Origin: Longimicrobiales bacterium
GTDB lineage: Bacteria > Gemmatimonadota > Gemmatimonadetes > Longimicrobiales > Gaopeijiaceae
Reading direction: 5' to 3'
Assembly (NCBI GenBank): GCA_965204735.1
Contig: OZ242008.1
Span: forward strand, 384,001 to 448,000
DNA: 64,000 nucleotides
Position numbers and translations under genes: made by a program
Shown: piece by piece, positions 27,501 through 61,772 of the stretch
Layout: every line of letters begins with the position of its first letter
How positions within the stretch are numbered: position 1 is the first letter of the stretch
Notes under the pieces: model-generated
What the model was told of the DNA's origin: nothing
The model's database searches: none
Seen by the model: only the letters and a program-made list of their open reading frames with translations

Positions 27501-30500
27501 GACGGGCAAAGCGTTCAGGCGCCGAAGGTGCTGCGGACCTCCATCGGCCCGCCCCCGTCGGGCGGCGACACGTACACGCGAGGCGAGACGTTCTTGGTGG
27601 GGGTGTCCTTCGACAGGGACGTGGCGGTGGACACGACGGGAGGCCGGCCCCGGGTCGCGCTGGAGATCGGGGATTCGACGCGGTATGCGACGTACCGGGG
27701 TCCCCCTCGTGGCAGACCTTGGGAGTTGCTGTTCGTTTACGTCGTGCAGGCAGGAGACCGGGACGCGGACGGCGTCAGCATCAAGGCGAACGGGTTGTCG
27801 GCGAACGGCGGCTCGATCACCCTGCTGGGCGACACTACGCCCGCGGTGCTGTCGCACATCGGGCTGTTTCCGACGGGACACAAGGTGGACGGCGGCCGCG
27901 TGGGTGCTCCGCACGTGCGATGGGCGGCGTTCAACGCTCCGGTGAAGGGGGACACGTACCTTCGAGGCGAGCGGATCGAGGTGACGATCGGCTTCGATCG
28001 TGTCGCGTCGGTGGACACGGTCGGGGGACGGCCGCGGATCGCGTTGCAGGTGGGGGACTCGACGCGGTACGCGACGTACCTGGGCCCTTCACGCGCGCAA
28101 GCGCACATCAGATTTGGCTACGTGGTGCGGGCTGGGGACACGGACACGGACGGGCTGAGCATCGGGTCCAACGCGGTGGAGCTGAACGGCGGCACGATCA
28201 CGGCGCCGGGGGACACGACGGCTGCCGTTCTGACGCGCGCCACGGTGCCGACGAGCGCGGCGCACAAGGTGGACGGCAGCCGAGCGGGAGTTGCAGAAGT
28301 GCAGTGGCTGGCCGTCGGTCCGCCTCCGTCGCGGGACAGCACGTACACGCGGGGCGAAGTGCTCTACGCGAGCGTGCACTTCGACCGGGCCGTTGCCGTG
28401 GACACGACGGGAGGCCGGCCGCGGATCGCCCTCGAGATCGGGGACTCGACGCGGCACGCGACCTACTCGCATCAGTTCACGAATACGCCGGCGCGACAGG
28501 TGTTCAAGTACGTGGTGCAGGCGAGCGACCGGGACGCCGACGGGCTGAGCGTCGCGGCCGACGCATTGGAGCTGAACGGCGGTTCGATCACGGCGCCGGA
28601 CGACACGGTGTCGGCGGACCTGTCGCACGCGCCGGTGGCGGCGGACTCGGCCTTCAAGGTGGACGGCGGTCGGACGGGCGCTCCACATGTGCGCTGGGTG
28701 TGGTTGAACGTCCCGGCGAGCGGCGACACGTACCTGCGCGGCGAGCAAGTTGTGGTGGTGGTGGACTTCGACCGAAGCGCTTCGGTGGACACGGTCGGCG
28801 GGCGGCCGCGGATCGCCTTGCAGGTGGGGGACTCGACGCGGCACGCGACGTACCTCGGCGCTCCGGGCGCGCGGCCGAGCTACGGCTTCACGTACGTGGT
28901 GCAGGCGGGCGACCGGGACGCGGACGGGCTGAGCATCGCGGCGAACGCATTGGAGCTGAACGGCAGCACGCTCACGGCGCCGGGCGACACGGCGGCGGCC
29001 GTTCTGACGCACGACTCGGTGCCGACGAGCGCGGCGCACAAGGTGGACGGGAGCCGAGCGGCCGGCGACGTCGCGGCGGAGGAGAATCGAGCGCCGGAAG
29101 TGGTGTCGGAGATCGCGCCGAAGACGATGGAGGTGGCGAGTCCGCCGGCCGTCGTCGACCTGTCGGCGCACTTCCGCGATCCCGACGGCGACGAGCTCCG
29201 GTACTTCGCGGCTTCGGCGACGCCGCGGTCGGTGCGAGTGGACGAGGCGGGCGGTGTCTTGACGATCCATGCGGCGGCGGTGGGCCAGTCCACCGTGACG
29301 GTGAGGGCGGTCGATCCCGAGGGTGCGGAAGCGGAGCAGAGCTTCTTGGTGACGGTCGAGGCGTCGCGTGCGGACCGCGCCCGCATCCTGAAGCGCTCGC
29401 TGGCCGCCTTCGGTCGGAGCGTGGGCACGGAGACGGTGGAAGCGATCGGCGGACGGCTGGGCGCGGCGGACGATCCGACTGCAATGGGCGCGATGGGCGC
29501 GGCGCATCTTCAAGTCGGCGGCCGGTCGCTTTCGTGCGTCGGCGCCGCGGAGCGCTGCGACCTGCAGGAGCTGGCCAGGCAGGCCGCCGGGCTGCTCGGC
29601 GTGCGGCCGTCGCACGGAGCGGGCAGCCTCGCGTCGGCGCTGCGGGCGGCTGCGAAGGGAGGCCACGACGCGGGCGCACTGCGCGGGCTGGCGGACGCCT
29701 TCGGACGATCGGCCCAGATCGGCGCCGCCGGCAGCTTCGGCGCACAGGACGGTTTCGCCGCCGGCAGCTTCGGTGCCACGGGCGGCTTGGGGACCGGCAG
29801 CCTCGGCGCACAGGGCGGCTTGGGCACCGTGGGCAGCTTGGGGGCCGGCGGCCTCGGCGCCACGGGCGGACGCGGCGACCGTCCCCGCTGGGGTCGGCTG
29901 GTCGCCATGGACCCCGTGACGCGCGACGAGCTGCTCACGCGGTCGTCGTTCCGGTTCTCGCCGGGCGCAGGCGCCGCCGGCGGCGCGCCGGCGGCGCCCG
30001 GCGGGTGGACGTTCTGGGGCCGAGCCAGCGCCGGCGGCTTCGAGGGCCGGCCCGAAGACGACCTTGCGCTGGACGGCACGGTGCGCTCGGCGTACCTGGG
30101 CGCCGACTACCGGTTCGGAGCGGGGCCGCTGGTGGGCCTGGCGCTGTCGCGAACGACGAGCTTGATCGGCTTCGAGAGCGGGATCAACGGCACGGGCACG
30201 GTGGACGCGCGCCTGACGAGCTTGTACCCGTACGCGCAGTGGTCGCCGCGCGCGGGATTGAGCGTGTGGGGGCTGGTCGGTGCGGGCCGGGGGACGGCGG
30301 CGCTGTCGGAGGACGCGACGCGCCGCCGGTACGAGACGGGCATGGGGATGGCGATGACGGCGGCGGGCGTGCGCCAGCGGCTGACGGGCGTGCTGGCCGT
30401 GAAGGCGGACGCTTTCGAGGTGCGCACCGATGCCGACGAGGCGGAGGGGTTGGCGGGCGTCGTGGCGAACGTGCGCCGGTTGCGCGTGGCGTCCGAGGTC

Positions 30501-31145
30501 GTGGGGCGCTGGGGGCTGTCGGGCGGGTCGTCGATTGCTTCGCAGGTGGAGGTGGGCGCGCGCTTCGACGGTGGCGACGCGGAGACGGGCGCGGGCGCGG
30601 AGGCGGGCGCGGGGATCGGCTACGTGCACGAGGGCATCGGGCTGAGCGTGGACGCGCGGGGCCGGGCGCTGGTGGCGCATCAGGCGTCGTCGTTCCGGGA
30701 GTGGGGCGCAAGCGTCGCGGTGCGTCTGCGGCCGAGTGGCGAGGCGGGCGGGTTGTCGTTCACCCTCGAGCCGAGCTGGGGCAATGCGGCGAGCGGCGTG
30801 GCGACGCTCTGGCGGGAGGGAGCGGCAGCGGGCGCGCCCGGCGTGCCGCTGGGCGGTTCCCTGTCGCCGGCGCAGGCGGGGGGCGTGCCGCTTGCGAGCG
30901 AGCGCGCGAGCGCCAGCCGGCTCCACATGGAGGTGGACTACACGATCGTGCTGGCGGACGGCGGGCGAGTGGCGCCGTTCGGGCGCTGGGCGGTCGAGGG
31001 TGGTTCGGGGCGTCGGCTGAACGTTGGGGTCCGGCTGTCGGTGCTGGAAGCGGCGACGCTCGACCTCTTCGGCGAGGAGGTCTCGGGCGGCGCCGAGCCC
31101 GCGGACCGCCGACTAGGCCTGCAGGGCGCAGTGCGGTTCAAGTGA
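12591..31145 (+). CDS. Giant (~6180 aa) autotransporter adhesin: signal peptide, tandem Ig-like plus Calx-beta units, two He_PIG-like domains, cadherin-like domain, C-terminal beta-barrel
   Basis: Single open frame of 18.5 kb. Signal peptide ...VVAFVLLVLIGAAPSSRAEA; Calx-beta motif TATSGVDY..GTLTFEPG..VRGDD.VEGDETVVLSLS..GTIVDDD; He_PIG-like ALPLGLAFDAGRRTIAGTP..YTATDADGD; barrel from WTFWGRAS (~30005) to GLQGAVRFK. The real start may be ATG 12603 or 12609. Confidence 0.92.
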   Translation: MFQSMTMRAAVPGVRDSACGGKAWAGVVAFVLLVLIGAAPSSRAEAQAPTVERIVFRGLADGDSTYYRGEAVRVRVAFTRHIAVETSGGEPHVELTVGAATRRAELVAWKLNRMDFRYVVQAGDLDGDGVSVPANGLKLNGAAVTAKDDASLAADVTHGVAEGGLSRKVDGSQYRPQGPTLSGEGASVAEGGAGAETDLGFAVRLAPAAASRVTVDYADAGSGTATSGVDYAAIEGGTLTFEPGDTLQTAWVKVRGDDAVEGDETVVLSLSGASGAELATSTVTGTIVDDDEAAPPGPTVERIVFLGLADGDSTYYRGEAVRVRVAFTRHIAVETSGGEPHVELTVGAATRRAELVAWKLNRMDFRYVVQAGDLDGDGVSVPANGLKLNGAAVTVKDDASLAADVTHGVAEGGLSRKVDGSQYRPQGPTLSGEGASVAEGGAGAETDLGFAVRLAPAAASRVTVDYADAGSGTATSGVDYAAIEGGTLTFEPGDTLQTAWVKVRGDDAVEGDETVVLSLSGASGAELATSTVTGTIVDDDEAAPPGPTVERIVFLGLADGDSTYYRGEAVRVRVAFTRHIAVETSGGEPHVELTVGAATRRAELVAWKLNRMDFRYVVQAGDLDGDGVSVPANGLKLNGAAVTVKDDASLAADVTHGVAEGGASRKVDGSQYRPQGPTLSGEGASVAEGGAGAETDLGFAVRLAPAAASRVTVDYADAGSGTATSGVDYAAIGGGTLTFEPGDTLQTAWVKVRGDDAVEGDETVVLSLSGASGAELATSTVTGTIVDDDEAAPPGPTVERIVFLGLADGDSTYYRGEAVRVRVAFTRHIAVETSGGEPHVELTVGAATRRAELVAWKLNRMDFRYVVQAGDLDGDGVSVPANGLKLNGAAVTVKDDASLAADVTHGVAEGGASRKVDGSQYRPQGPTLSGEGASVAEGGAGAETDLGFAVRLAPAAASRVTVDYADAGSGTATSGVDYAAIGGGTLTFEPGDTLQTAWVKVRGDDAVEGDETVVLSLSGASGAELATSTVTGTIVDDDEAAPPGPTVERIVFLGLADGDSTYYRGEAVRVRVAFTRHIAVETSGGEPHVELTVGAATRRAELVAWKLNRMDFRYVVQAGDFDGDGVSVPANGLKLNGAAVTEKDDASLAADVTHGVAEGGASRKVDGSQYRPQGPTLSGEGASVAEGGAGAETDLGFAVRLAPAAASRVTVDYADAGSGTATSGVDYAAIEGGTLTFEPGDTLQTAWVKVRGDDEVEGDETVVLSLSGASGAELATSTVRGTIVDDDEAAPPGPIVERIVFLGLADGDSTYYRGEAVRVRVAFTRHIAVETSGGEPHVELTVGAATRRAELVAWKLNRMDFRYVVQAGDFDGDGVSVPANGLKLNGAAVTAKDDASVDADVAHGVAEGGASRKVDGSQYRPQGPTLSGEGASVAEGGAGAETDLGFAVRLAPAAASRVTVDYADAGSGTATSGVDYAAIGGGTLTFEPGDTLQTVWVKVRGDDAVEDDETVVLSLSGAAGAELATLTVTGTIVDDDGPEPRGPTVERIVFRGLAAGDSTYYRGEAVRVRVAFTRHIAMEMSGGKPHVELTVGAATRRAELVAWKLNRMDFRYVVQAGDLDGDGVSVPANGLKLNGATVKARNGPALDANPAHGAAEGGASRKVDGSGHRPLGPTLSAGGSSVTEGGSNTETDLEFAVWLGPPAASRVTVAYADAGSGTATSDVDYAAIEADTLTFEPGETLKTVSVTVRGDDEVEDDETVVLSLSGATNAELASRRVTGTIVDDDGSRPTVSIDSATVREPGPGEAVALSFTVSLSAPSARQVTVRYTDAGTGTATSGGDYDAVTPGTVVFAAGDTAQTVEVTVKGDALDEPVETIVLALGRPVNADLPNGGARGVGTIVDDDDAPTLSGDSPSVEEGKGEGRRLTFTLALDRPSGRGLALYYADAGTGTATSGADYEEVVPDTLFFEPGETTKSIDVMVVGDTLQELDETVVLRLSAADSSLLAVSTALIAGTIVDDDGEDLAPSFGDAVVPAQRWVRACEIRAVQLPAAEGGDAPLTYGLAPALPLGLAFDAGRRTIAGTPEREQPVTTYRYTATDADGDLATLSFTAQVELLECGLEADGLDADGEPEAVDAASSETPSIGDAGDFDAERETLSGDATAVSMHQDVDAEGGLATGAVVGAQSSTLTVQRIVFRGLAAGDSTYYLNEVVRVRVFFTQHVTVNTSGGKPYLDLTVGSTTRRAAYNSSRQNYLGFSYRVQADDFDGDGVSVPANGLKLNGATVTARNNPSVVADPAHGVAEGGLSRKVDGSQFRPPGLAVERIDFRSAPGGDSTYYRDEIVRVRVFFTEQIAVDASGGLPSVDLTVGAETRRAVMGSRSWNQNRLELRYVVQAGDFDGDGVSVQANSLSLNGAVVTAQGDASVLAETGHGAVEGGASQKVDGSQYRPQGPTLSAGGTSVVEGDSGAETDLEFAVRLAPAAASRVTVDYADAGSGTATSGVDYAAIGSGTLTFEPGDTLKTVSVTVRGDDEVEDDETVVLSLSGATGAELATSTVRGTIVNDDEAAPALTVQRFNFRGLGAADSTYYLNEVVRVRVFFTEHVTVDTSGGEPYLDLTVGSTTRRAAYNSSRQNYLGFSYRVQADDFDGDGVSVPANGLKLNGATVTARNNPAVVADPAHGVAEGGLSRKVDGSQLRPQGPTLSAGGTSVVEGDSGAETDLEFAVRLVPPAASRVTVDYADAGSGTATSGVDYAAIEGGTLTFEPGDTLKTVWVKVRGDDEVEGDETVVLSLSGATGAELATSTVRGTIVNDDEAAPALTVQRFNFRGLGAADSTYYLNEVVRVRVFFTEHVTVDTSGGEPYLDLTVGSTTRRAAYNSSRQNYLGFSYRVQADDFDGDGVSVPANGLKLNGATVTARSNPAVVADPAHGVAEGGLSRKVDGSQFRPQGPTLSAGGTSVVEGDSGAETDLEFAVRLAPAAASRVTVDYADAGSGTATSGVDYAAIGSGTLTFEPGDTLKTVWVKVRGDDEVEGDETVVLSLSGATGAELATSTVRGTIVNDDEAAPALTVQRFNFRGLGAADSTYYLNEVVRVRVFFTEHVTVDTSGGEPYLDLTVGSTTRRAAYNSSRQNYLGFSYRVQADDFDGDGVSVPANGLKLNGATVTARNNPAVVADPAHGVAEGGLSRKVDGSQLRPQGPTLSAGGTSVVEGDSGAETDLEFAVRLAPPAASRVTVEYADAGSGTATSGVDYAAIEGGTLTFEPGETLKTAWVKVRGDDEVEGDETVVLSLSGATGAELATSTVRGTIVDDDEAAPALTVQRFNFRGLGASDSTYYLNEVVRVRVFFTEHVTVDTSGGEPYLDLTVGTTTRRADYGSSRQNYLDFRYRVQADDFDGDGVSVPANGLKLNGATVTARSNPAVVADPAHGVAEGGLSRKVDGSQFRPQGPTLSAGGTSVVEGDSGAETDLEFAVRLAPASASRVTVAYADAGSGTAASGVDYAAIEGGTLTFEPGDTLQTVSVTVRGDDEVEDDETVVLSLSGATGAELATSTVRGTIVDDDGPEPRGPTVERIVFRGLAAGDSTYYRDEVVRVRVRFSRHVTVATTVGEPHLDLTVGATTRRADFGSSRQNYLDFRYRVQAGDFDGDGVSVPANGLKLNGATVKARNGPALDANPAHGAAEGGASRKVDGSGHRPQGPTLSAGGSSATEGGSNTETDLEFAVWLGPPAASRVTVAYADAGSGTATAGVDYAAIEADTLTFEPGETLKTVSVTVRGDDEVEDDETVVLSLSGATNAELASRRVTGTIADDDGSRPTVSIDSATVREPGPGEAVALSFTVSLSAPSARQVTVRYADAGTGTATPGGDYDAVTPGTVVFAAGDTAQTVEVTVKGDALDEPVETIVLALAGPVNADLPNGGARGVGTIVDDDDAPTLSGDSPSVEEGNGEGRRLTFTLALDRPSGRGLALYYADAGTGTATSGADYEEVVPDTLFFEPGETTKSIDVMVVGDTLQEIDETVVLRLSAADSTLLAVSKALIAGTIVDDDGEDVAPSFGDAVVPAQRWVRACEIRAVQLPAAERGDAPLTYGLAPALPLGLAFDAGRRTIAGTPEREQPVTTYRYTATDADGDSATLSFTAQVELLECGLEEADGLDADGDPEAVDAASSETPSIGDAGNFDAERETLSEDATAVSMHQEDDADGDLATEPVVGAQSGAPAVQRIVFRGLAAGDSTYYRDEVVRVRVFFTQHVTVNTSGGEPYLDLTVGATTRRAAYNSSRQNYLGFSYRVQAADFDGDGVSVPANGLKLNGATITAKNDTSVNANIAHDSAAGGASRKVDGSKYRPPSVRSATFSNSPASGDTYGYGEKIEATVAFDRRVLVSTTGGTPSLDLTIGAHTRQATLIRAGRRTRLIFSYTVQAGDLAPAGASIAANAVRLNGGTITHDADSATHAILAHEAVAADTTRRVSGRQGRPPKVEGIAFGAPAPTDSVYYRGDSIRVRVAFDDSVAVDTTSGKPQVALAVGTATRQAALSAHAGKALDFVYVVQAADRDSDGVSIAANALALNGATIRGTGAAAARNADVTHPPVAPSAARTVDGSKVGAPKVSSVAFAGLPPDGDTYHYDDEVRVQVVFDGRVAVDTVGGKPQLALSMGTRRRQAVFAPSASTGTTLVFAYRVQSADVDSDGASIAANALALNGGSIRAEADSTTAALATHDSLAADPARKVDGRPRITSLEFYDPPSSVPPSAGVYGFGERIRILARFDQKLILDHRAWVSLEVGTDTVQVRSSWRLRMGDRALLFTYVVGRGAMDSDGVRVPKGALSLNGGMLKADSDGVTRARLDHGGLPADSSRRVNGSVTPTPRPVVTLTDDPPASGNTYTWNERIEASVYFNVDVRVTGRPRLTMNVGTGTRQLVADEYGGRGPLTFEYVVQAADMDADGISFPANALSLPSGATIRSAADTSIHAALSHDSVPADPQRKVDGQSVQAPKVLRTSIGPPPSGGDTYTRGETFLVGVSFDRDVAVDTTGGRPRVALEIGDSTRYATYRGPPRGRPWELLFVYVVQAGDRDADGVSIKANGLSANGGSITLLGDTTPAVLSHIGLFPTGHKVDGGRVGAPHVRWAAFNAPVKGDTYLRGERIEVTIGFDRVASVDTVGGRPRIALQVGDSTRYATYLGPSRAQAHIRFGYVVRAGDTDTDGLSIGSNAVELNGGTITAPGDTTAAVLTRATVPTSAAHKVDGSRAGVAEVQWLAVGPPPSRDSTYTRGEVLYASVHFDRAVAVDTTGGRPRIALEIGDSTRHATYSHQFTNTPARQVFKYVVQASDRDADGLSVAADALELNGGSITAPDDTVSADLSHAPVAADSAFKVDGGRTGAPHVRWVWLNVPASGDTYLRGEQVVVVVDFDRSASVDTVGGRPRIALQVGDSTRHATYLGAPGARPSYGFTYVVQAGDRDADGLSIAANALELNGSTLTAPGDTAAAVLTHDSVPTSAAHKVDGSRAAGDVAAEENRAPEVVSEIAPKTMEVASPPAVVDLSAHFRDPDGDELRYFAASATPRSVRVDEAGGVLTIHAAAVGQSTVTVRAVDPEGAEAEQSFLVTVEASRADRARILKRSLAAFGRSVGTETVEAIGGRLGAADDPTAMGAMGAAHLQVGGRSLSCVGAAERCDLQELARQAAGLLGVRPSHGAGSLASALRAAAKGGHDAGALRGLADAFGRSAQIGAAGSFGAQDGFAAGSFGATGGLGTGSLGAQGGLGTVGSLGAGGLGATGGRGDRPRWGRLVAMDPVTRDELLTRSSFRFSPGAGAAGGAPAAPGGWTFWGRASAGGFEGRPEDDLALDGTVRSAYLGADYRFGAGPLVGLALSRTTSLIGFESGINGTGTVDARLTSLYPYAQWSPRAGLSVWGLVGAGRGTAALSEDATRRRYETGMGMAMTAAGVRQRLTGVLAVKADAFEVRTDADEAEGLAGVVANVRRLRVASEVVGRWGLSGGSSIASQVEVGARFDGGDAETGAGAEAGAGIGYVHEGIGLSVDARGRALVAHQASSFREWGASVAVRLRPSGEAGGLSFTLEPSWGNAASGVATLWREGAAAGAPGVPLGGSLSPAQAGGVPLASERASASRLHMEVDYTIVLADGGRVAPFGRWAVEGGSGRRLNVGVRLSVLEAATLDLFGEEVSGGAEPADRRLGLQGAVRFK
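12735..17950 (+). repeat. Seven tandem 747-bp (249-aa) intragenic units, block A
   Basis: Units start at 12735, 13482, 14229, 14976, 15723, 16470 and 17217; the inner units are nearly identical. Confidence 0.95.
20292..23270 (+). repeat. Four tandem 744-bp (248-aa) intragenic units, block B
   Basis: LTVQRFNFRGLG units start at 20292, 21036, 21780 and 22524. Confidence 0.92.
23271..25500 (+). repeat. Second copy of the ~2.2-kb segment at 17217-~19440 (offset about 6054 bp)
   Basis: Same order of Ig, three Calx-beta, He_PIG and acidic linker; near-identical DNA, e.g. GSRPTVSIDSATVREPGPGEAV at 17947 and 24001. Confidence 0.9.
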
Positions 31146-42675: not shown

Positions 42676-43818
42676 ATGGCCACAGACACCGCAAGCGGAG
42701 TGCACCTTCCAAGCCTGTCGATCTCGAGCTTCCGGGGCATCAAGCGCCTGCGCATTCCCCGGCTCGGGCAAGTCACCTTGCTTGGGGGCATGAACTCCTC
42801 GGGAAAGACGACGGTTCTCGAAGCGGTTCGCGAATACGCGGCACGGGGCAGAAACTTGCCCGCCCTGCTCGCGGGCCGCGACGAGTACTCGACGTCATTC
42901 GACGAAGACGGCGACAAGGTGGCCGTTCCCGATCCGGCGGCCTTGTTTCATGGAAGAACCGTGCCGCAGGAATCCGGGATCTTGATTGGTCCCAACGACG
43001 GCCGTGTCGCCGACATGCTTTCCATCCGGGCAGTTTCCCCGAACGACGAACAGATCGAACTGCTCGGCGATCTCTGTCAGGATGATTCGTTCGAGCCGTT
43101 GGTGATGCAAGTTGCCTTCGGCAAGGGGAAGCGGGTCATGCCGTGGTGTCTGCCCCCGGCCACCTACGGAGAACGAAAGGCGATGTCTCCTTCTTCCCAG
43201 TACAGATACGCAAGGCGTCGCAACGGTGATGCAGACTTGCCGCCCCCACTAAGTGTTGACTGGCTGGGCGCCGGCGTCGTGTCGAATCGCCAGCTGGCTG
43301 ACATGTGGGAGGACGTAGTGCTGACCCAGGCCGAGGATCGTGCGACAAGGGCGCTTGCCATGGTCGTCGGCGACTCCGTAGACCGCGTTGCCATGGTTGG
43401 ATCGACCAAGGGGATGCGGGGGGAGCCTCACGTGTCGGTGAGACTCCGGGACCAAGCGACGCCCGTTCCCCTAAGAAGCTTGGGCAACGGCGCAGTCAGG
43501 ATCTTTGCGGTTGCCCTTGCCTTGGCTAATGCCAGCGGCGGGTTTCTGCTCATCGACGAAGCAGAAGACGGCATTCACCACAAGGTGCATCAGGGCTTCT
43601 GGCGCATGATTCTACAAGCCGCACGAGAGAGCAACGTCCAGGTCCTCGCCACGACGCACAGCTTCTCTTGCGTGCGAGGCTTCGCGCTGGCGTGCGCAGA
43701 GTCGGCCGGTCAAGGAATCTACGTGCGACTGGAACGGAGCGCCGACGAAACCAAGGCCGTTACGTATACGGAAGACGAACTCGAGATCGTCGCGGAACAA
43801 GGCATCGAGGTGAGGTAG
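42676..43818 (+). CDS. ABC-type AAA ATPase (AAA_15/AAA_21, AbiEii/OLD-like), no partner gene
   Basis: LSISSFRGIKRL, Walker A GMNSSGKTT, signature LRSLGNG, Walker B LLIDEAEDGIH, H-loop VLATTHS. The start could be ATG 42646. Confidence 0.85.
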   Translation: MATDTASGVHLPSLSISSFRGIKRLRIPRLGQVTLLGGMNSSGKTTVLEAVREYAARGRNLPALLAGRDEYSTSFDEDGDKVAVPDPAALFHGRTVPQESGILIGPNDGRVADMLSIRAVSPNDEQIELLGDLCQDDSFEPLVMQVAFGKGKRVMPWCLPPATYGERKAMSPSSQYRYARRRNGDADLPPPLSVDWLGAGVVSNRQLADMWEDVVLTQAEDRATRALAMVVGDSVDRVAMVGSTKGMRGEPHVSVRLRDQATPVPLRSLGNGAVRIFAVALALANASGGFLLIDEAEDGIHHKVHQGFWRMILQAARESNVQVLATTHSFSCVRGFALACAESAGQGIYVRLERSADETKAVTYTEDELEIVAEQGIEVR

Positions 43819-43836: not shown

Positions 43837-43941
43837 GATCCGAAAGCAGATCGATCTGTCATATAGCGAATATAGCATATATAGCAAATGAGAAGCCCCG
43901 AATGAACCGCCTTTCGGGGAAGGAACTGGACTCGCCGGCAA
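43837..43941. repeat. Dispersed intergenic element, copy 1 (three tandem 9-bp ATATAGC repeats)
   Basis: ATATAGCGA-ATATAGCAT-ATATAGCAA-ATGAGAAGC at 43861-43896; flanks resemble copy 2; hairpin CCCCGAA..TTCGGGG follows. Confidence 0.75.
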
Positions 43942-51232: not shown

Positions 51233-52237
51233 GTGGAATACGTCTTGGCGACTCGCGAGATGGGCAGCATTCGGGAGACCAGCGTGCGGGCTCTGTGGGA
51301 CCACGAGGCCCAGGACTTCACGCCGTGGCTGGCCAGGAACATCGGCTTGCTGGGCGAGGCCCTCCAGATGGACCTGAAGTGTTGCCAGACCGAGGCGCAG
51401 GTCGGCTCGTTTTCGGTGGACATACTGGCGGAAGATCGCGGGCGAAGCCTCCGGGTCGTGATCGAGAATCAGCTTGAATGGACCGACCACGGTCACATGG
51501 GCCAGCTCCTCACGTACGCCGCCGGCCTGGACGCGAGCGTCGTCGTCTGGATTGCACCTCGTTTCCGCGAGGAACATCGAGCGGCCATCGATTGGCTGAA
51601 CCGAACGACCTCGGAAGACGTCGAGTTCTTCGGCGTCGAGGTGCGCGCCATTGCCATCGAGCAGGGTGAAGACAAGCAGGCGTCTCTTCCTGCACCCGAG
51701 TTTCGACCGGTCGCCTTCCCCAACGACTGGACCAAGGGGAACGCCGGCAAGAGAAGCGCTTCTTCAGGCCAACCAGCCAACCAACAGTGGCTCGACTTCT
51801 TTCAACCTCTTGTGGAAAAGCTTCACGAATCTGGGTTCACGACCAAGGCAAGCGCAACGAAGGGACACGTTCAACGGTTCGGTGACGAGTGCGTCCAGCA
51901 CACGTATTACAGTGCATGGTTCGGATGGAGCTACGCCATCGTGAGCGTGGTCATGTTCAACAAGGAGCTGTACGCAAAGTTGGAGGAAAGAGAAGAGGCA
52001 GTTGCCAAAGCTGTAGCCGCCGCCGACATCGAGGGCGAGCTGTTCTGGAGGACTCTCCCGACGCGGGAATTTTCCGAGATACACGTCCGAATCAAGGGAG
52101 CGATCGGCGATCCGCCGGAACGACTCGAAGAGATCAGGGACTGGATGGCTGACACTCTGCCGAAGTTCCGGGAGATCCTCAACCCGCAGATCAAGGAGAT
52201 CGTCCGCGAATCGGAAGGGGGCGCTGCGAGCGCTTAG
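51233..52237 (+). CDS. DUF4268 domain protein with N-terminal PD-(D/E)XK (NucS-like) domain
   Basis: [60 protein letters not shown] family signature. Confidence 0.8.
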
Positions 52238-52599
52238 CGTTTTCGCGAGCGCTTGCCCATGGGTTTCTGCGGGTTGCCGCCCGAGAGGACGCGGGGCTCG
52301 GCCGTCGCTGATCTCCGCCGAAGGTCGTGTTCTCTCCAGTCGGGAACGTAGGCGGTCATCAGGGCCTTGAAGAGCTTGCCGTGGTTGGGGACCCGGAGGT
52401 GGAGCAGCTCGTGAGCGATCACAAAGTCCTGGAACCCTGGCGGCTGGCCGGCCAAGTCGGTGGCCAGCGTGACGTTGCCCGCCGTGGAGCAGGAGCCCCA
52501 CTTCCGGGTCATCCGCCGAATCCGAACGGACTTGGGCTGCACGTCGAGGCGGGTTGCCCACGAAAGCACGCGACCGCGAAGGGCGTCAGTCGTCGTCAT
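52234..52599 (-). CDS. Short M48/YgjP (DUF45) metal-binding protein associated with type I R-M
   Basis: [24 protein letters not shown] (HExxH); overlaps the hsdR end. Confidence 0.88.
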
Positions 52600-55564
52600 C
52601 GGGCGTGCCCAGCACGAGGTTCATGATGCGGTCCACCACTTGCTTGCGGCGACCGCTGGTCAGCTTGAGCAACGGACTGTACAGGTGCCGTCGCAACAGG
52701 CGTTGCTCGTGCTCGCTGTGCTTCGCACTGGGGAAGCGGAGAAGCAGCTCGTCGATCCGGCGAGCCAACTCCATGGCCGACGTCGCCGCTCCGGTCACGG
52801 CCGACTCCTTCCGCAGCTCCCAGTAGACTCCAAAGGCCCTCGCGGACAGTCCACTTTCCTCTGCGGCCGCAAGCGCTTCGTCCTTCTCCTCGGCCAGCCC
52901 GGCAAGCAGGTCCATCGCCTCCATGGAGGATATCTGGCGCGTCTCCAGGTCTCGCTGCACGCGCTCGGCGCGCTCCTGCAACGGCAAGAGGACGGCGGCC
53001 AGCTCGGCGTTGTCGTCGATCTCCTTGCGCATCCCTCGCAACAGGTTGAACACCATGGCTTCGTCGCGCTCCGGCTCTTCTCGCAACTCCTCCAACGTCT
53101 TCAAGTCGAAGGTGACCGCTCGCGGGACGTGGCCCAGCCCTTCGGTGACGGCGCTCTTCTGAATCATGGCGCGGGTCTTGGCGGCCAAATCGGCCACGTA
53201 GTCCACCTTGCGGGCGTAAGCGGCCTGCGTTGCCGCGTAGAGGCCGGCCAGCAGCTTGTAGGAATCGAGGTGGTCGCGCAGCTCGTCGGAGGGCGACAGT
53301 ATCTCCATCAGTGCCTCGATCTCCTTGTAGGACTCGAAGAACTCGTTGCGCGCGGTCGGATCGCGAAGCTGGTCGTATACGCGCTGCTCCAGCCAGGCGT
53401 CGTCGGCTCCTTCGACCGCTCCCGCAAGGTACTTCGCCTCTGCTCGGGCCAGCTTGTCGCGGAAGTCGCCCAGGAGCACGTCGATGCCCTCGACGACCCC
53501 GCTCACGTCGGTGGAATCGAAGCGCAGCGCCTTCTCCAGCGCCTGAAGCACGCCCACGAAGTCCACCACGAGCCCGATCCGCTTGCGGGCGCCGGTGTCC
53601 GGGTCCACGTGAGGCCGGTTCACGCGAGCAATCGCTTGCAGGAGCACATGGTCGCGCATGGGCTTGTCGAGGTACATGCAGTACAGCAGCGGCGCGTCGA
53701 ACCCCGTGAGCAGCTTGTCGGTCACGATCAGGATTCTCGGGTTCTCGCCCGCCTTCTTGAACATCAGCCGCGCTTCGTCCTCCTGGTCCCGCGACAGCTG
53801 AAGCTCCGCGACGATCGGCCGCTTCACGACGTCGTCGGGGTTCTCGGTGTAGACGGGCGCGGTCCATTCCGGCGGAAGCAGCTTGTCGAGGGCCCGCTTG
53901 TACTTGGCGCAAGCCTCTCGGTTCACGCCGACCAGGAACGCCTTGTAGCCCAAGGGTTGCACGTTCTCGCGGAAGTGGCGGGCGACGTAGGCCGCAACCT
54001 TGTCCACGCGGTCGTCGGCGGTCAGGAAGGCGCGCAGCCCGACGGCGCGGTCCAGGACCTTGTTGAGCTCGTCCACGTCGGTGACGCCCTCGGCGGCGGC
54101 CATGGCGAAGAACTCGTCGTCCAGCTGCTGGGCCGGCAGGGTCGTCTCGCTGGGCGCCACGACGTGGCGGATCGGGAGCGTGGTCTCGTCCTCGATCGAC
54201 TCGGCGATCGTGTACTTGTGCAGATAGCCCTTCTCGTCGTCGGCGCCGAATATCTTGAACGTCCCCCGGCCGTGCTCGGTCTTGGCGATCGGCGTGCCGG
54301 TGAAGCCGACGATGGTGGCGTTCGGCACCGCGCCCATGAGGTAGGTGCCCAGATCGCGGGCGACGGAGCGGTGCGCCTCGTCGATGAAGACGAAGACGTT
54401 GTCGCGGGTGCTCGCGTTCTTGTCGAGCCCCTCGAACTTGTGGATCATCGACAGGATCAGCCCGCGCCTGTCGGCTCGGAGCAGCTCCGCCAGCTCGGCC
54501 TTGGAGCCGGCCTGGTGCACCGCGATGTCCTGCTGCTGCATCTCGCCCAGCAGACGCTCGACCCACTCTCGGAGCTGCCCTTCAAGGTCGATCCGGTCCA
54601 CCACGACAATTACGGTGGGCGCCTGGAAGCGTTCGCGGTCCTGGAGCAGCAACCGGGCCGCCGTGAGGAGCGTGAAGGTCTTGCCCGAGCCTTGGGTGTG
54701 CCAGACCAGCCCCCGTCGCTTCTTCGGCTCCGCGCATCGTTCGACCACCCGCGTCGCGGCCCGCCGCTGGTGCTGCCGCAGCACCGTCTTCCGCGTTACG
54801 CCGTCCTCGACGTAGAACAGAATCCAGTCGCGGAGCGTCCGCAGGAAGTCGGTCGGCTCGAAGAAGGATTGGACGGCGAAGCGGTAGCTGTCGTCGAAGC
54901 CGCGCTTGCCCTTGTCGCTGGGCGATTCCTTCCAGCGCGCCATGAAGCGGCGCGACAGGTTCCACGTCACCCCGTACCAGTAGTCGAGCATGTGCGTGAC
55001 GTTGAAGAGCTGGGCCGAGCCGACCAGCTCCGGCGTGCTCGCCTCGTACCGCTTCAGCTGATTCAGGCCCCGCTCGATGGCGTCGGCCTGCTTGGGGTTC
55101 TTGTGCTCCACGATCGCCACGGGCAGCCCGTTGACGACGAACATGAGGTCCGCCCGCGCCCCGCGGCGTCGGGCAGGCGGTCTGATCGACCACTCCCATG
55201 TGACGTGAAGGACGTTGGCGTTCGGTTCGTCGAAGTCGATCAGCCGGACGAACCGCTGCCGCATCTCCGTCTCGTCGTACCATTGCCTTTCCCCGCGCAT
55301 CCAGCCCAGCATCTGGCGGTTCCCCTCGACCGTCGACGGCGTGGCCTCGATCCGCTCCACGACGGACCGGACGGCGTCGGCAGTCAGCCAAGGGTTGAAG
55401 CGACGGATGGCGGCTTCGAGCACGTCGCGGAAGAAGGCACCTTCCCGGCCTCCTCGCTCGGCCGTGGCCACCTTAGGCTCCAGCGGCGTCCAGCCGACCT
55501 CCTGCGCGTGCCGGACCATCGGAAACTGGGCGACGGCCGCCTCGTCGATCCGGCGGAGGGTCAC
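52586..55564 (-). CDS. hsdR: Type I restriction endonuclease subunit R
   Basis: Nuclease motif [19 protein letters not shown], Walker [40 protein letters not shown]. Confidence 0.96.
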
Positions 55565-55575
55565 GGGAAGAAGCT

Positions 55576-55951
<376 letters not shown>

Positions 55952-55965
<14 letters not shown>

Positions 55966-57355
55966 TGGTCCGCATCCACCGAGCAGACCAGCCCGTGCCA
56001 CGCAACTGCACTAGCCCTTCGTCTCGGAGTTCCTCCAACATTCTTCGCAGCTGCGCCTCGCTCACACTACCCCGCATCCCCGAGAGGAGCTCCCTCCGGG
56101 TCATGCCCCCAGCAGCACCATCCAGAAGCACCAGCACCTCCGTCCTTGCCGGAACCGCCCCTTCCGCGACACCCTCGGGGCCCATTTGTCCGTGTTGGAA
56201 CCGGACGATCACGGAGTCGCCCTGCTCCTCGATCTCGGGCCGGGGCAACCCGGCAGCGATCGCCGTTTCGGCCATCCTGATTGTCCCCGTGCCCCACGTC
56301 TCGATGATGCCTCTGCGATAGAACGTTCGGGCGATCCAGGGGTTCCACAGCCGGGACCTGTGCGGCTCAAAAAGGTCTTCCGGCGTCAGTCCAAAGTGCA
56401 ACGGACCGGGCGACGTGATCTCCAGCCGGTCGTCGTACATGGCCAGTCCGATGGAGCCGCCGAAGACGGCGTAGTCACGGTGGCAGAGAGCGTTCGCTAG
56501 CGCCTCCCTGGTCGCCAAGACCGGGTACAAGGGCTCGTCGAGCCGGTCGAATCGGTTCGGGTCAAACCGTCCCGCGATGGGCACCCACTCGCGTAGGAAC
56601 CGTTCGCCCGCTCGCAACAGCTCGAAAGCGTTGCCAGCGAACTGGCGGTTGTCGAGAAACTTCGACCGATCCACCCCGCGAAACCGAGCCACGCGAAGTA
56701 AGCACTGAGGAAAGTCCAGCTCCAGGCGCTCGCGCTTGCCGAACAGCACGGCGGCGGCCCGATACACAACGTCACCCTGTATCAGGCCTAGTCCGAGCAA
56801 TAGGTCCTCGACGCCTCTACGCTCCGGTTCGTCCAACCGTTCCCGTCGTACGGCCTCTGCGACCGTATTCCGAACCTCGTCTCCGTCGAGGTCGTCGATC
56901 GACCATCCCGCAGCTTCCTGGTTCTCCCAGCGGTCGCTCTTGTGATACCGCTCCAAGACCGCCCGACCGTGCTCGTCCGCCGACATCGGCAGCGTGACGT
57001 TGCCTACACGGCGGTAGCCCTGGCCTCGGTAGGTGTACGGCTTGCCTTCGCCCGCCTTCACCCGCACGACGACCACGTCGCGCCCATTCCCCACATTCAC
57101 GCGAATCACCTCTGGGTAGGCCGCCGGCTGAATCCGGCCAATCTCCGCGCCAAGTTCCTCCAACGTCCGGTCGCTGACTTGCTGTCCCACGACCGCACCA
57201 TCCGGCTTGACCCCGAACATCACGTAGCCGCCGCGCTGGTTGAGCATAGCGCATATGGTCTGCGCGGCCTCGCGGCGACCGCCGGTCGTCGTCTTCAGCT
57301 CCAACGTCTCGGACTCGCCGAATTCAACGAGGAGGGCGAGCTGGTCAGCGGTCAT
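55952..57355 (-). CDS. Schlafen/AlbA_2 plus HATPase_c_4 (RecG C-terminal-like) plus wHTH protein
   Basis: [30 protein letters not shown] (AlbA_2); [36 protein letters not shown]-terminal HTH ending GTGWSARW. Confidence 0.9.
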
Positions 57356-59907
57356 GGGATACTCCTGCTGTCCGGGCCGACTCTTTCCGATCCAATGTGC
57401 GTCCCTGATCTTGAGGCTGCGCGACGATCACTCGAGTTCGGCCAGTAGCAATTCTATGCAACAGTGCTCTGTACAGTTGTCCCGTGACACCTTCTTGGGT
57501 GCGATACAGACGAACTCTTTCTCTGACTCCGCTCAGGACAGATACGATTACCCGCTGTTCCGCTAGTGATGGCACTGGTATCCGCTGAGCTAGGACATCA
57601 GTGTCGCGAACAGCGGGATAGCTCGCACCTGTTTCCAACGATGAAATGTCGCTGACGACTGTGTCGAGTTGCATTACATGAAAAAGATAATCGGAGTCAA
57701 TTACGTTGGGATCAGCCCTCAATACACAGAAGGCCGTCGATACTATTTCTCCATGAAGTCGATCAGGGATTTGTGCTATCCGCCGCAATGCCGGACGTAT
57801 AGTGGCAAAGATCGTGTCTCCGGCATGCACGATTTTGCGTGCCCGGCTAGGTATGGTCTCAGGGCGTCGGTACTCGACTTCCTTCGTGATTGTGAGTGTA
57901 TCGCGCGATACACCGGAAACGGCGACGTACCGAATTGATGGTCTGGGCTCACGTCGAGGATTCCAAACTGAGACTGGAATCGTTACGTTGCCTATCTCCG
58001 TATGCCGCCAGTCCGAGGGCGGAGCCGCTACATGATCCATGGACAGAGATGCAAGCATCGACAACATCTTTTGCTCCAATCTAGACTGTTCCAAAGACAA
58101 TCGACTCATTGAAGCTACAAGATCATCCAACTGATCGCCGTCTGTAGTTCTTGTACGTGCCTGCGTCGTCCATCGGCTTGGAATAAGGCTATAGTCTACT
58201 GCTGCGATCTCGCTTGTCGACACAACTGCAACCTGACGGATCGTCGTATCTGCATCCAGAAACATGGCGGCCAAAGCCGGAATAGCCGCCTGGGACAAAT
58301 GGTTCTTGGCTCTCCCTCTGCGCGCCCATTCGCTAGCATCCAGCAGCACCACCTTCCCTCGTCGCGCTGGCGGCTTGTCCTTCGACAGCACCACGATCAC
58401 ACCTGCGGCCGTCGTGTTGTAGAACAGGTTGTCCGGGAGGAGGATCACGCCCTCGATCAGGTCGTTGTCCACGAACCACTTGCGGATGTTCCGCTCCTTG
58501 TCCTCGTGCTTCGCGCCGGAGCCGCGCGTCACGGCGCCGGTGTCCAGCACCACGGCGGCACGACCGCGCTCGTTCAGGCACGCCAGCGTGTGCTGGAGCC
58601 ATGCCCAGTCGCCCTTTCCGCTGGTCGGCCCTCCGGCGGTGCGGAAACGGTCGAAGGGGTCGTTGGCGAAGGTCGCCGGGTTGAACGGTTGGTTCCACAT
58701 TGGGTTGGCGACCACGATGTCGTGGGTGTCGATCTTGCCGGAGGCGGTTTTGAACTTCGGGTTGATCATCGTGTCGCCGCGTGCGATCTCCACGTCCATG
58801 TCGTGGATGATGGCGTTCATCTTGGCAGTGGCGTAGCTCTCGGCCTGGAGTTCTTGGCCGGCCAGCTTGAGGGGCACGCGGGTAGTGGGATCAAGTTCTC
58901 GGGCGACCAATTGAAGCTTGAGCAGCAGGCCGGCCGAGCCGCAGGCGTAGTCGTGGCACTTGTCTCCAGGCTTTGGGCGCATGATGTGCGCCATCAGGAA
59001 GGCGACCTCCGTCGGCGTGAAGAACTCACCCCCGCTTCGACCCGATCCCTCCGCGAACTTGCGCAGCCAGGAACTCGTAGGCGCGACCTAGAAAGTCGGG
59101 CTGCACGTCGGCGAGGCCGAGGCGATAGTCGGGGTCCGAGAAGGTCTCGATGACCTGGGCGAGCTTGGCCGGGTTGACGTCGCGCTCGCCGTTGCGCTCC
59201 CCCGCGAAGTCCACGACGTCGATGACGCCGGACAGGGAAGGGTTCTGGCGCACGACCGCCCGCACGGCCTTGGTCAGATGCTCCCCGACGTCCCTCGGGG
59301 CCGTGCTTCGGCCTTCGGCATCGCGGGGCCACTCGTGCGGTTCCCGACCGCTGATCACCGCCCAACGGGCCTCCGGCGGCAAGTAGAAGCGGAGGAGATC
59401 GTGGTCCTCCTCGGCGATCTCCCTGGCAACGTCCGCATTGCCGTATTCGGTTTCGAGTCGAGCGATCTCGTCGTCGAACACGTCGGAGAGGCGCTTCAGG
59501 AACAGGAGCGGCAGCAGATAGTCCTTGAACTTCGCCGCATCTCGTTGGCCGCGGATCGAACAGGCGGCGCTCCACAGCATCTTCTCCATGGCCGTGGTGT
59601 CGGACGATCCCGAGGTCTCGGCCGCGCGGCCGCTCTTCTTCGTCTTCCGCCGTCGCGCACGGCTCTTTGGACCGCTGGACGCCTCCGGAACGTTCCCGGA
59701 ATCCGCCGCCATCCAGTCGACACCCGCCTCCTCGGCCAGTGCCGCGATGGCCTCTCTGGACGCTCGCTGCGGCTTGACTTTGCCGCCCTCCCAGCGGTTG
59801 ACGCTGGCGAAGGACACGTCGAGTCGCTCAGCAAGCTCCTCCTGCGTGAGGTCCAGGGCCTCGCGGATGGCCCGGAGCGTAGCCGGGATGTTGCGTGGCT
59901 CAATCAC
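57345..59907 (-). pseudogene. hsdM: Xre-HTH-HsdM-single-TRD (half HsdS) fusion split by a +1 frameshift at 59067/59068 (real or sequencing error)
   Basis: [24 protein letters not shown]; Hsd[17 protein letters not shown]; removing one base gives [29 protein letters not shown]; motif I DYACGSAG; motif [53 protein letters not shown]. Confidence 0.85.
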
Positions 59908-60727
59908 GAAGACAGAGGGCACGGCCATCGTTGTGGAACAGCCGGTGCAAGCCGAGCATGACGAGTTGCCTGGCCTGACCGATGAAGGGCGTCTGAGCCA
60001 GCGTTCGGTTTTCGTCGTCCGTGAGGCCATTCATCAAGTCGTCGGCCGTGTAGCCCTCGAAGCGCTGGTGCTCCGGCCAATCCCGAGGATCGTTCCACGG
60101 ATCGACCAAACCGAGCGTCTCCGCTATGTCGCGGGTACAACCGCCGAAACCTCCCACCAGGAACAACGGCTGTCCGGCCTCCAACGACAGCAGCGCCTCT
60201 TCGGCAATGCCCGGCATCTTGCCCTTGTAGTTCTCGACTTGGCCACCGATGGCTATTCGGCCGCTCGTTTCGGCTCGCATCATCGCCCGCATGCTTGTCA
60301 GACCTGATCGCCAATCCCTCTCGCTCGGCTCGCATGACGGGAGCTTTCGACGCTCGTCGGCAGACATCCGCGTGCCGTTGAGGCCGACAAAGGTCAGATG
60401 CGCGACGTGGTCCACGCTGGCCGCAACTTCGTCCAAGTCGCTTGTGGACATCCGAATGTGGACAGGCCACGCGAAGTAGTTGGTCATGCGAATCGCCGTT
60501 TGGCCGGGTCGCCGGTACCGTCCCGCCAGCTCGAAGAGCACTTCGGTGAAACCCCGCTCGCGAAGGTCGCCGCCGTAGGCCAAGTCCACTCCCGAGGCCA
60601 GAAGTTCTACAACAAGCTCCACGAACGTGTCCCACACATGGTCCACACTGACTCCCAGTCCGTTGGTGTCCGGGCTGTCGGAGATCGAGACGGCGATGGC
60701 TCGCGGCGGATGCAGAGCCGTGTTCAT
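59900..60727 (-). CDS. Stand-alone SLOG protein (SLOG cluster 2 / LD_cluster2-like), paralog B
   Basis: [68 protein letters not shown] before ATG 60727. Confidence 0.8.
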
Positions 60728-60748
60728 GCGTGCCTCCGTATCCAATCG

Positions 60749-61606
60749 TCAAGCGTGTGAAGCTGCACGCTCGGGTCGATGAAACAGGCTGCGGCCGTCT
60801 CTGCGGTAGAGGCGGTACAGGCCCGTCATGACCAAGTTCACGGCCTGGCCGATGTAGGACGTATGGGCGAGCTTTCGGTTCTCGTCGGCGGTGAGCCCGT
60901 TGCCCAGAGAATCCACCGAGTAGGCGTCGAACATGCGGCGACCCGGCCACGAGCGTACCCCGTTCCACGGTTCGATCACTCCCATGGCTTCCGCTATGTC
61001 CCTGGTGCAGCCTCCGAATCCGCCAACCAGAAACACCGGCTGTCCCGCCTGGAGCGACAGCAGCGCCTCCTCGGCGATGCCGGGCATCTTGCCCTTGTAG
61101 TTTTCCACCTGACCGCCGACCACGATTCGTGCGCTTGTGTTGTCGAGCATCGTCGTCCGCATGGAGGTAAGGCCGAGCCGCCACTCCTCGTCGTCGGGCT
61201 CTCTTGAAGGCAGGGCCCGGCGAACCTCGGTGGAGATGGGTGCCCCGTCGGGTCCGACCAGCACCAGCCGGGCGGCGGGCGCCACGGCGGCCGCAACCTC
61301 GTCCAAGTCGCCCACGGTCATGCGAATGTGAACCGGCCAAGCCAAGTAGTTGACGACGCGAGTCAGGGCCTGGCCGCGTCGCTGGTATCGGCCGACGAGC
61401 TCAAACAGCAGCTCGGTGAAGCCGCCGTTGCGACGGCTGCGCATGTCTCCGCCGTAGGCGAGATCCGTCCCGGTCGCGAGGAGGAATACCGCCAGCTCTG
61501 CCAGTATGTCGTCCAGGTGCTCGTCGATGAATCCGAGGACTGCCATGTCCGGACTCGCGGACACGGAGACGCCGATGGCCTTGGGGACATGGAGCCGTGT
61601 AGTCAT
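60749..61606 (-). CDS. Stand-alone SLOG protein (SLOG cluster 2-like), paralog A
   Basis: Same motifs as paralog B. It is the 3' end of the listed 60749..63874 frame; ATG 61606 follows GAGGA. Confidence 0.8.
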   Translation of the reverse strand: MTTRLHVPKAIGVSVSASPDMAVLGFIDEHLDDILAELAVFLLATGTDLAYGGDMRSRRNGGFTELLFELVGRYQRRGQALTRVVNYLAWPVHIRMTVGDLDEVAAAVAPAARLVLVGPDGAPISTEVRRALPSREPDDEEWRLGLTSMRTTMLDNTSARIVVGGQVENYKGKMPGIAEEALLSLQAGQPVFLVGGFGGCTRDIAEAMGVIEPWNGVRSWPGRRMFDAYSVDSLGNGLTADENRKLAHTSYIGQAVNLVMTGLYRLYRRDGRSLFHRPERAASHA

Positions 61607-61685
61607 GGCCGGTTCCTCACGTACCAGTCGTCCATCGTGCGCAGCTGGACACTTGGGTCGATGCCGTCTCGCCGACAGCTTGGGA

Positions 61686-61772
61686 GATCGGAAACGGATC
61701 GCGGGTCTGCGATATAGCGAATATAGCACATATGGCAGAAATGGGAAGCGGACGGCCAGAAATCGCCGGCAA
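61686..61772. repeat. Dispersed intergenic element, copy 2
   Basis: ATATAGCGA-ATATAGCAC-ATATGGCAG-AAATGGGAAGC at 61712-61749; shares GATC.GAAA..GATCG and TCGCCGGCAA flanks with copy 1. Confidence 0.75.

Follow-up and report, generated by a model that had tools for sequence, protein, structure and literature searches.

A type I restriction-modification operon with a Schlafen-ATPase passenger and probable SLOG remnants of a TIR-SLOG-ThsB module in a Longimicrobiales bacterium

Organization of the cassette and the deleted TIR genes

The window analysed here is a stretch of 64,000 nucleotides of contig OZ242008.1 (positions 384,001 to 448,000) from a Longimicrobiales bacterium, whose metagenome-assembled genome (G000) is 98% complete. 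At 51-62 kb, the window carries a cassette of six minus-strand genes: two SLOG genes, SLOG-A and SLOG-B; hsdM, the methylase gene of a type I restriction-modification (R-M) system; a Schlafen gene; hsdR; and a short M48 metallopeptidase gene, with an array of short palindromes ahead of hsdR and a convergent DUF4268-like gene at the end (Table 1). An earlier note, made from the sequence alone, had listed this gene set as a candidate composite defence operon; its positions hold and its spacings are exact, with a gap of 21 bp between the SLOG genes and overlaps of 8 bp (SLOG-B/hsdM), 11 bp (hsdM/Schlafen) and 14 bp (hsdR/M48). For the 8-bp overlap, hsdM has to start with the GTG at 59907, the aligned counterpart of the ATG in two relatives, G003 and G114. 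As that note had also remarked, no integrase is found among the genes called in this region. The explanation that we favour, and consider fairly probable, is that the locus is a type I R-M operon with a Schlafen-ATPase passenger, in which the SLOG genes are remnants of a TIR-SLOG-ThsB module; since the TIR genes of the module have been lost, this copy is likely inactive.

Table 1. Features of the cassette and its borders (window coordinates)
Feature	Position	Strand	Evidence or remarks
DUF4268-like gene (PADLOC PDC-S11)	51233..52237	+	PDC-S11 (single-gene candidate) E 6e-86 over residues 8-322, full-length match
Short YgjP/M48 metallopeptidase, 121 aa, HExxH intact	52234..52599	-	Pfam YgjP; equally short in G002, G003, G114 and G307
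hsdR, 992 aa	52586..55564	-	TIGR00348, 436 bits (cut-off 284.55); PD-(D/E)xK nuclease and SF2 helicase motifs intact
Intergenic array of short palindromic units, 12 cores CYAAGAYG	55576..55920	-	96-bp duplication and 36-nt G run
Schlafen (AlbA_2)-HATPase_c_4-probable winged helix-turn-helix (wHTH) protein, 467 aa	55952..57355	-	Pfam AlbA_2, HATPase_c_4
hsdM 3′ part, N6 methylase fused to a single target recognition domain (TRD; half HsdS)	57345..59069	-	Pfam N6_Mtase (PF02384), one Methylase_S
hsdM 5′ part, XRE helix-turn-helix (HTH) and HsdM_N, cut off by a +1 frameshift near 59070	59026..59907	-	Pfam HTH_3, HsdM_N (PF12161)
SLOG-B, SLOG cluster 2, 275 aa, orphan	59900..60727	-	PF18163 E 1e-62
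Second TIR 3′ remnant, overlapping the SLOG-A end	60724..60781	-	G002 match begins at 60781, inside the G002 TIR gene
SLOG-A, SLOG cluster 2, 285 aa, orphan	60749..61606	-	PF18163 E 2e-64
3′ remnant (~20 codons) of deleted ~390-aa TIR gene; likely ribosome-binding site (RBS) of SLOG-A within	61603..61666	-	aligns with the G002 TIR gene end
Conserved upstream block, candidate extended -10 promoter within direct and inverted repeats	61706..61761	-	sequence match in relatives

The locus was compared with 40 genomes of relatives, among which G002 and G003 are congeners of the source genome and G114 belongs to another genus. The segment 52315-60781 was found in both congeners, with nucleotide identities of 91-93% (G002) and 79-84% (G003) and with other flanking genes, and G114 also carries the cassette; the composite proposed by the earlier note thus recurs in these three genomes. 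The complete order, present in G003 and G114, is the upstream element, a TIR_2 gene (~390 aa), SLOG, ThsB_TIR, HTH-hsdM, TRD/hsdS, AlbA, the array, hsdR and the short M48 gene. In G002 the ThsB gene is missing, and the TIR_2 gene, with its single-base indel, is kept ahead of SLOG.

Two features of the window had escaped the earlier note: a 3′ tail of the TIR gene lies ahead of each SLOG gene, and the ThsB-like TIR gene is absent between SLOG-B and hsdM. The two tails are 80% alike and begin at the same homologous base. Both TIR genes have been deleted from this copy, leaving one tail of ~20 codons per SLOG; the deletions are kilobase-sized, with a novel 42-nt junction. Cognate TIR and ThsB genes were not found in searches of the 98%-complete source genome, in which the single other TIR_2 match, within an 840-aa frame, is unrelated.

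SLOG-A and SLOG-B score 218 and 212 bits with the profile of SLOG cluster 2 (PF18163; gathering score 25.3), a family said to go back to Burroughs et al. in 2015; their nearest Atlas clusters are of the same family, and a search of the SLOG profile against solved structures (PDB) gave no significant match. SLOG-B is the orthologue of the cassette SLOGs of G002, G003 and G114, with identities of 94%, 83% and 79%. SLOG-A presents 62% identity to SLOG-B, with a synonymous divergence (dS) of 1.08, and in a 33-row tree it is basal to the clade of G523, G003, G114, G002 and SLOG-B (support 99/92). Rather than a recent duplicate, it is a second, divergent allele, and because of this divergence and its basal position it would come from a second copy of the module. 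The reading of the two SLOGs as a designed pair was rejected, since a tandem is present in this genome only, among 16 family hits, and the alleles differ by a dS above 1. SLOG-A keeps 77 and SLOG-B 74 of 81 conserved columns, both within the low tail.

The family hits come from profile scans of 301 family genomes, in which PF18163 was found at 16 places in 12 genomes. The TIR profile matched nine places in seven of the 301 genomes; eight adjoin a SLOG hit, one is an N-terminal scrap, and there is no long TIR hit without SLOG. Of 13 long SLOG hits, seven have a TIR gene, five have none and one, at a contig edge, is undecidable; the SLOG of G523, a genome outside the 301-genome sample, is likewise without TIR. 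This asymmetry of loss, in a small sample of related genomes, fits a costly TIR protein together with a harmless or protective SLOG.

Orphan SLOGs might also be maintained by selection because they silence TIR modules, whether resident or newly arriving, by acting as sinks for the signal or as antidotes, and the tandem pair would then be a small collection kept behind a live promoter. SLOG genes that lack TIR and follow a short tail or leader of it, in which the likely RBS is retained, are found in G000 (twice), G227, G312 and G523; a fusion in G307 can be added to them, and the cases span three SLOG clades. Both remnants of the window start at the same base, the frames are open, and the ratios of nonsynonymous to synonymous substitution (dN/dS) are 0.12-0.27. 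We nevertheless judge such a role very unlikely. The TIR loss is later than the split from G002 (dS 0.16), so that the low dN/dS of the SLOGs mostly reflects the time spent with the partner; elsewhere, in G235 and G284, the SLOG hits are mere fragments; and, in a small and related sample, both SLOGs of the window stand in the low tail for conserved columns. In G523, the operon directly ahead of the orphan SLOG (L054:9001-9960) is presumably ImuA-ImuB-DnaE2-like, and behind this SLOG stands the beginning of a ThsB-like gene, ~20 codons long.

The TIR-SLOG module outside the cassette

The explanation of the SLOG genes as module remnants draws on the surroundings of their relatives. In a scan of metagenomes, the best 80 of 116 SLOG loci gave 59 clusters at 90% identity. 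A TIR gene lies at most 300 bp upstream of SLOG in all of the 49 clusters with at least 1.3 kb of upstream sequence, the other 10 being too short. For the neighbourhoods, 25 clusters with at least 3 kb on either side were counted and 34 were dropped: TIR is present in 25, ThsB-like genes in 15, HsdM in two, HsdR in one and AlbA in none. HsdM is found near SLOG in 6 of the 59 clusters overall. The constant partner of SLOG is the ~390-aa TIR protein (49/49 clusters), deleted here, and the suggestion of the earlier note that SLOG guards the restriction enzyme is not supported. In the family, type I genes are absent around the TIR-SLOG-ThsB trio at four places, in G008 (three copies) and G184. A scan of genome contigs with one sequence as query returned four loci.

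Plasmids carried 11 SLOG records, of which five were examined. Three have separate TIR genes upstream of SLOG, with an IS3 between TIR and SLOG in one of them; the other two encode TIR-SLOG fusions of 686-689 aa in which SLOG is C-terminal, and the first ~380 residues of these fusions align with the partner TIR over its full length (29% and 25%). The fusions are those of Priestia and Gloeothece, and small TIR genes neighbour them.

The complex model of the TIR and SLOG pair of G003 scored 0.83, against 0.00 for the best control, on a test whose mark is reached by 116 of 157 solved pairs and by 2 of 215 mismatched pairs; at least 85% of the contacts agree between runs, and the pLDDT of the partners is at least 86. 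Because fused forms exist, TIR-SLOG resembles a split gene, a type of pair that tends to pass this binding test. From the model, SLOG is predicted to bind the N-terminal domain and the C-terminal tail of the TIR protein, with an interface formed by residues 4-69 and 360-390 of the latter and with the TIR domain (182-273) left free; stretches of note in this predicted interface are TIR 49-54 and 360-388 and SLOG 22-27 and 246-261. The catalytic TIR glutamate is invariant in 45/45 partner TIRs. A fold search with the model of the TIR partner (pLDDT 79) gave only generic alpha/beta matches (TM-score ≤0.35), and the NucS family had no hit in the alignment of the partner. Its N-terminal domain aligns weakly with its own TIR domain (probability 4.8%, E 0.008), by which a second, inactive TIR domain is not established; the description of PF18163 presumably already mentions an association with a protein of one active and one inactive TIR domain.

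For the intact module, a mechanism may be drawn by analogy with type I Thoeris, as presented in 10.64898/2025.12.03.692087, and we give it about an even chance. The small, variable ThsB-like TIR protein would sense the phage and make a signal derived from ADP-ribose; SLOG would bind this signal; and the docked TIR domain of the ~390-aa protein would then be activated as the effector and consume NAD+, the two chains together corresponding to one ThsA of Thoeris. Alternatively, SLOG could restrain or degrade the product of the large TIR; SLOG domains may have either role, receiving or degrading a signal, according to PMC9503650. In type I loci, the module likely rides as cargo, without a dedicated biochemical link, the HTH of HsdM would control the promoter shared by the restriction operon, and the TIR gene, likely costly, would tend to go first.

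A wider proposal, which we put forward as rather unlikely, is that the module represents an undescribed type of Thoeris, in which the SLOG receptor and the TIR NADase effector are separate chains that dock by way of the non-catalytic domains of the TIR protein, with interchangeable small TIR sensors, and which would be repeatedly recruited into type I operons as a co-regulated back-up under the HTH of HsdM. The window points to a widespread TIR-SLOG cluster 2 module with a predicted function in phage-defence signalling, and the fusions, the binding model and the loss asymmetry make the split of SLOG receptor and TIR effector a concrete, testable proposal.

Restriction genes, Schlafen gene and flanking regions

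Taken as a whole, hsdM encodes an XRE HTH, HsdM_N, N6_Mtase and one TRD across 59907-57345, and the methylase motifs I and IV are intact (DYACGSAG, for SAM binding, and NPMW, of the NPPY type). The single TRD is fused to HsdM here and in G002 and G003; in G114 there is a separate frame with two TRDs. Compared with G002 and G003, both of which have a single frame of 831-846 aa, the gene has one extra base near 59070. Splits by a change of frame were found in 0 of 45 host orthologues (the one flag is a tandem paralogue family), and for this reason the frame break is probably real. With the TIR genes deleted and hsdM broken, this copy is probably dead in both arms, judging from its genes; because both arms look broken, it is a poor subject for experiments. 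HsdM-clade relatives were not matched on plasmids at 1e-120 (the best match has 37% identity, at 1e-40), and a class-level search for the clade gave no further genome.

That the two SLOGs, the deletions and the frameshift are together a chimera or an error of the metagenome assembly seems to us scarcely credible. The assembly does contain 19 homopolymer stretches of G or C that are 18 nt or longer, one of them within the array, the cassette lies at a synteny break, and single-base indels also occur in the TIR genes of G002 and G114. Against this stand the 45 unsplit host orthologues, the coherent open frame of SLOG-A with a tail of its own, and kilobase deletions with a novel 42-nt junction, which are unlike base-call errors.

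The link between SLOG and type I enzymes seen by the earlier note is strong within the family, and in the broader clusters it is rare (HsdM 2/25, AlbA 0/25). Several points weigh against the explanation of the SLOG genes as remnants of loose cargo in an inactive copy. Type I loci belonging to three HsdM clades contain or adjoin nine of the 16 family SLOG hits (G000 twice, G002, G003, G114, G227, G284, G307 and G312). The HTH-HsdM clade is present in 5 of 301 family genomes, and in 5/5 of these the operon contains or adjoins a SLOG; G307 has a fusion of SLOG with the Schlafen-ATPase. The dN/dS is 0.08-0.28 for every cassette gene tested, both SLOGs included. The indels of the G002 and G114 TIR genes, one single base each near the start, are possibly assembly errors; the frameshift of hsdM, although probably genuine, is seen in the assembly only; and the order from signal to effector is itself taken over by analogy.

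Some of these facts would fit a coupled two-layer system, in which the type I enzyme would have, in an intact TIR-SLOG-ThsB module and perhaps also in the Schlafen protein, a back-up in the manner of PrrC, co-regulated by the HTH of HsdM. The copy in the window would still be a decayed example of such a system. SLOG occurs in all five genomes of the HsdM clade and in the G307 fusion; the metagenome loci L063 and L111, of the same HsdM clade, have the trio after hsdS; and translational overlaps run from TIR through Schlafen behind one conserved upstream element. We hold this alternative to be unlikely, considering the broader clusters cited above. In addition, the slot of the module varies among type I loci, being ahead of hsdM, behind it, or between hsdS and either hsdR or AlbA, and in four of the five genomes the cassette is one and the same by inheritance. 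Unrelated cargo is found in other type I loci, including a Gabija-like pair in G312 and several genes in those of the source genome.

Among individual type I loci, that of G307 (L046:3105-14546), of the same HsdM clade, has a half-HsdS, two opposite-frame cargo open reading frames (ORFs), which we take to resemble a short Argonaute and a SIR2-like protein, and the Schlafen-ATPase-SLOG fusion, before hsdR. The locus of G312 (L047:2-13198) has an orphan SLOG, an OLD-TOPRIM ATPase and UvrD pair (Gabija-like), a DUF4062-HATPase-HTH gene and an AlbA-HATPase-HTH gene. In the source genome, a gene with a SLOG-like GGHP motif, seen by eye, lies inside another, transposase-broken type I locus (G000:C1:3727133-3727690).

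The Schlafen protein has ESETLELK at residue 14, which corresponds to the Ex4(E/D)xK motif as defined in PMC13056530; its C-terminal HTH is suggested by homologues. Its gene has a dN/dS of 0.08-0.16. The earlier note had regarded it as a guard, a role that is not supported: its architecture is the commonest among prokaryotic Schlafen proteins, and it has 15 paralogous loci in the source genome. In the broader clusters, AlbA is near SLOG in 0/25.

The array occupies the equivalent position in 4/4 cassette copies, with 12 cores here, eight in G002, 11 in G003 and nine in G114, and is the sole such cluster in the source genome. It has no Rfam match and its repeat-spacer period is not fixed, by which a known RNA or a CRISPR-like array was discarded. 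Methylase target copies were discarded because the adenine is missing, by eye, from the outer half-sites of most units. The idea that the array is the linker repeat which AlbA paralogues carry in frame was not borne out, as the array is intergenic and a unique cluster in the genome. The fold z-score of -6.6 is explained by the palindromic units, and a role in mRNA structure ahead of hsdR is a guess. The G or C runs of the genome, 18-36 nt long, include several that lie a few bases 5′ of ATG codons, and may be hypermutable tracts or a sequencing artefact.

The cassette genes are coupled behind one conserved upstream element, which recurs with an 89-96% match ahead of the TIR gene in three relatives, over 53 nt in G002, 58 nt in G003 and 25 nt in G114. 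It includes a promoter-like site at 61747-61720 with an extended -10 match, and in G002 and G003 it contains inverted repeats of 10 bp. Each of these three genomes has one copy of it, and G001 and G008 have none. It may be considered a candidate operator for the HTH of HsdM, a reading that is weakened by a second copy of its core at window position 43885, between convergent genes. This second GCTATAT direct-repeat element (43867-43885, minus strand) lies beside a lone AAA ATPase gene (42676-43818, plus strand; PADLOC PDC-M38A, E 6e-64), which is AbiLi-like and for which no partner gene was called.

The convergent DUF4268 gene is present as the earlier note said; its membership in the cassette did not stand. 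In G003 it comes after the same SusC-like gene at a site without the cassette, and so it belongs to the flanking site; it is also found in none of the 59 metagenome SLOG clusters. The host gene directly upstream of the cassette in G002 has its orthologue in G003 at a distance of two places from DUF4268 (regions compared: G000:C1:294620-296704, L016:4625-5200 and L021:8249-10358). From this orthology, the cassette copies of G000 and G002 may descend from a single insertion that was later rearranged. G001 has an orthologue of the BNR-repeat gene of the window, and ~5 kb downstream of it there is a type I locus of another kind, which includes an AlbA gene (L023:1446-8637). Farther away, an ORF of 6,134 aa (12741-31145, plus strand) with high GC skew probably encodes a repetitive surface protein.

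Comparison with known systems

As described in 10.64898/2025.12.03.692087 and 10.64898/2026.01.22.701046, Thoeris type III consists of a ThcA SLOG protein and several ThcB TIR proteins. The module resembles it in having a stand-alone SLOG and several TIR genes, one of them of similar length (375 positions in the ThcB4 model and ~390 aa here); the TIR genes beside SLOG are present in G003, G114, G008 and G184, and none is left in the window. The scores are different: with the ThcA model (184 positions; cut-off 110), SLOG-A reaches 13.7 bits, SLOG-B has no hit and the relatives have at most 23, while the ThcB4 model gives 17-43 bits (cut-off 220), on the TIR domain alone. Membership in Thoeris III was rejected on these NCBIfam scores. 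Type I Thoeris, with a ThsB TIR signal and a ThsA SIR2-SLOG effector, shares the ThsB_TIR gene (PF08937), present in intact copies, and SLOG as the predicted receptor; it differs in that there is no sirtuin here, the SLOG is of cluster 2 and not STALD (15.8 bits, cut-off 24), and the predicted effector is a separate or fused TIR.

The earlier note knew no named system of this kind, and this agrees with our results: PADLOC has no model for the cassette SLOG, the scores for Thoeris III and type I fall short, and the module is unnamed in PADLOC 2.0 and NCBIfam 20. No experimental study of SLOG cluster 2 was found in the papers searched, although preprint supplements or subscription papers could hold one and Table S1 of 10.64898/2025.12.03.692087 could list the module.

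The Schlafen protein is similar to the prokaryotic HisKinase(-HTH) classes of PMC13056530, with Ex4ExK intact, if HATPase_c_4 corresponds to the HisKinase label. In the accessible part of that work, these classes are 34% and 19.2% of the Schlafen set, the commonest architecture; two of seven tested systems defended, namely the DUF262 and the Ig-like fusions, and RNase activity of the HisKinase class is not shown there. EcoprrI with PrrC is comparable for the presence of cargo genes inside a type I operon; PrrC-style latency of the cargo is not evidenced here.

The restriction enzyme finds its closest parallels in type I R-M systems with half HsdS, the engineered M1/2Sfus (PMC6158711) and NgoAV (PMC3874165), with which it shares HsdM, one TRD and HsdR; PMC6459960 is a further source for the comparison with known systems. 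The natural fusion differs by its N-terminal XRE HTH and, in this copy, by the frameshift. The engineered fusion, as described in PMC6158711, forms dimers, has a palindrome as its target and restricts DNA together with HsdR; since it does so, the intact M-half-S proteins of G002 and G003 would likely also pair up, on a bipartite palindrome, and act jointly with HsdR. The HTH-HsdM-half-S fusion thus represents a natural parallel to an enzyme that had previously been engineered.

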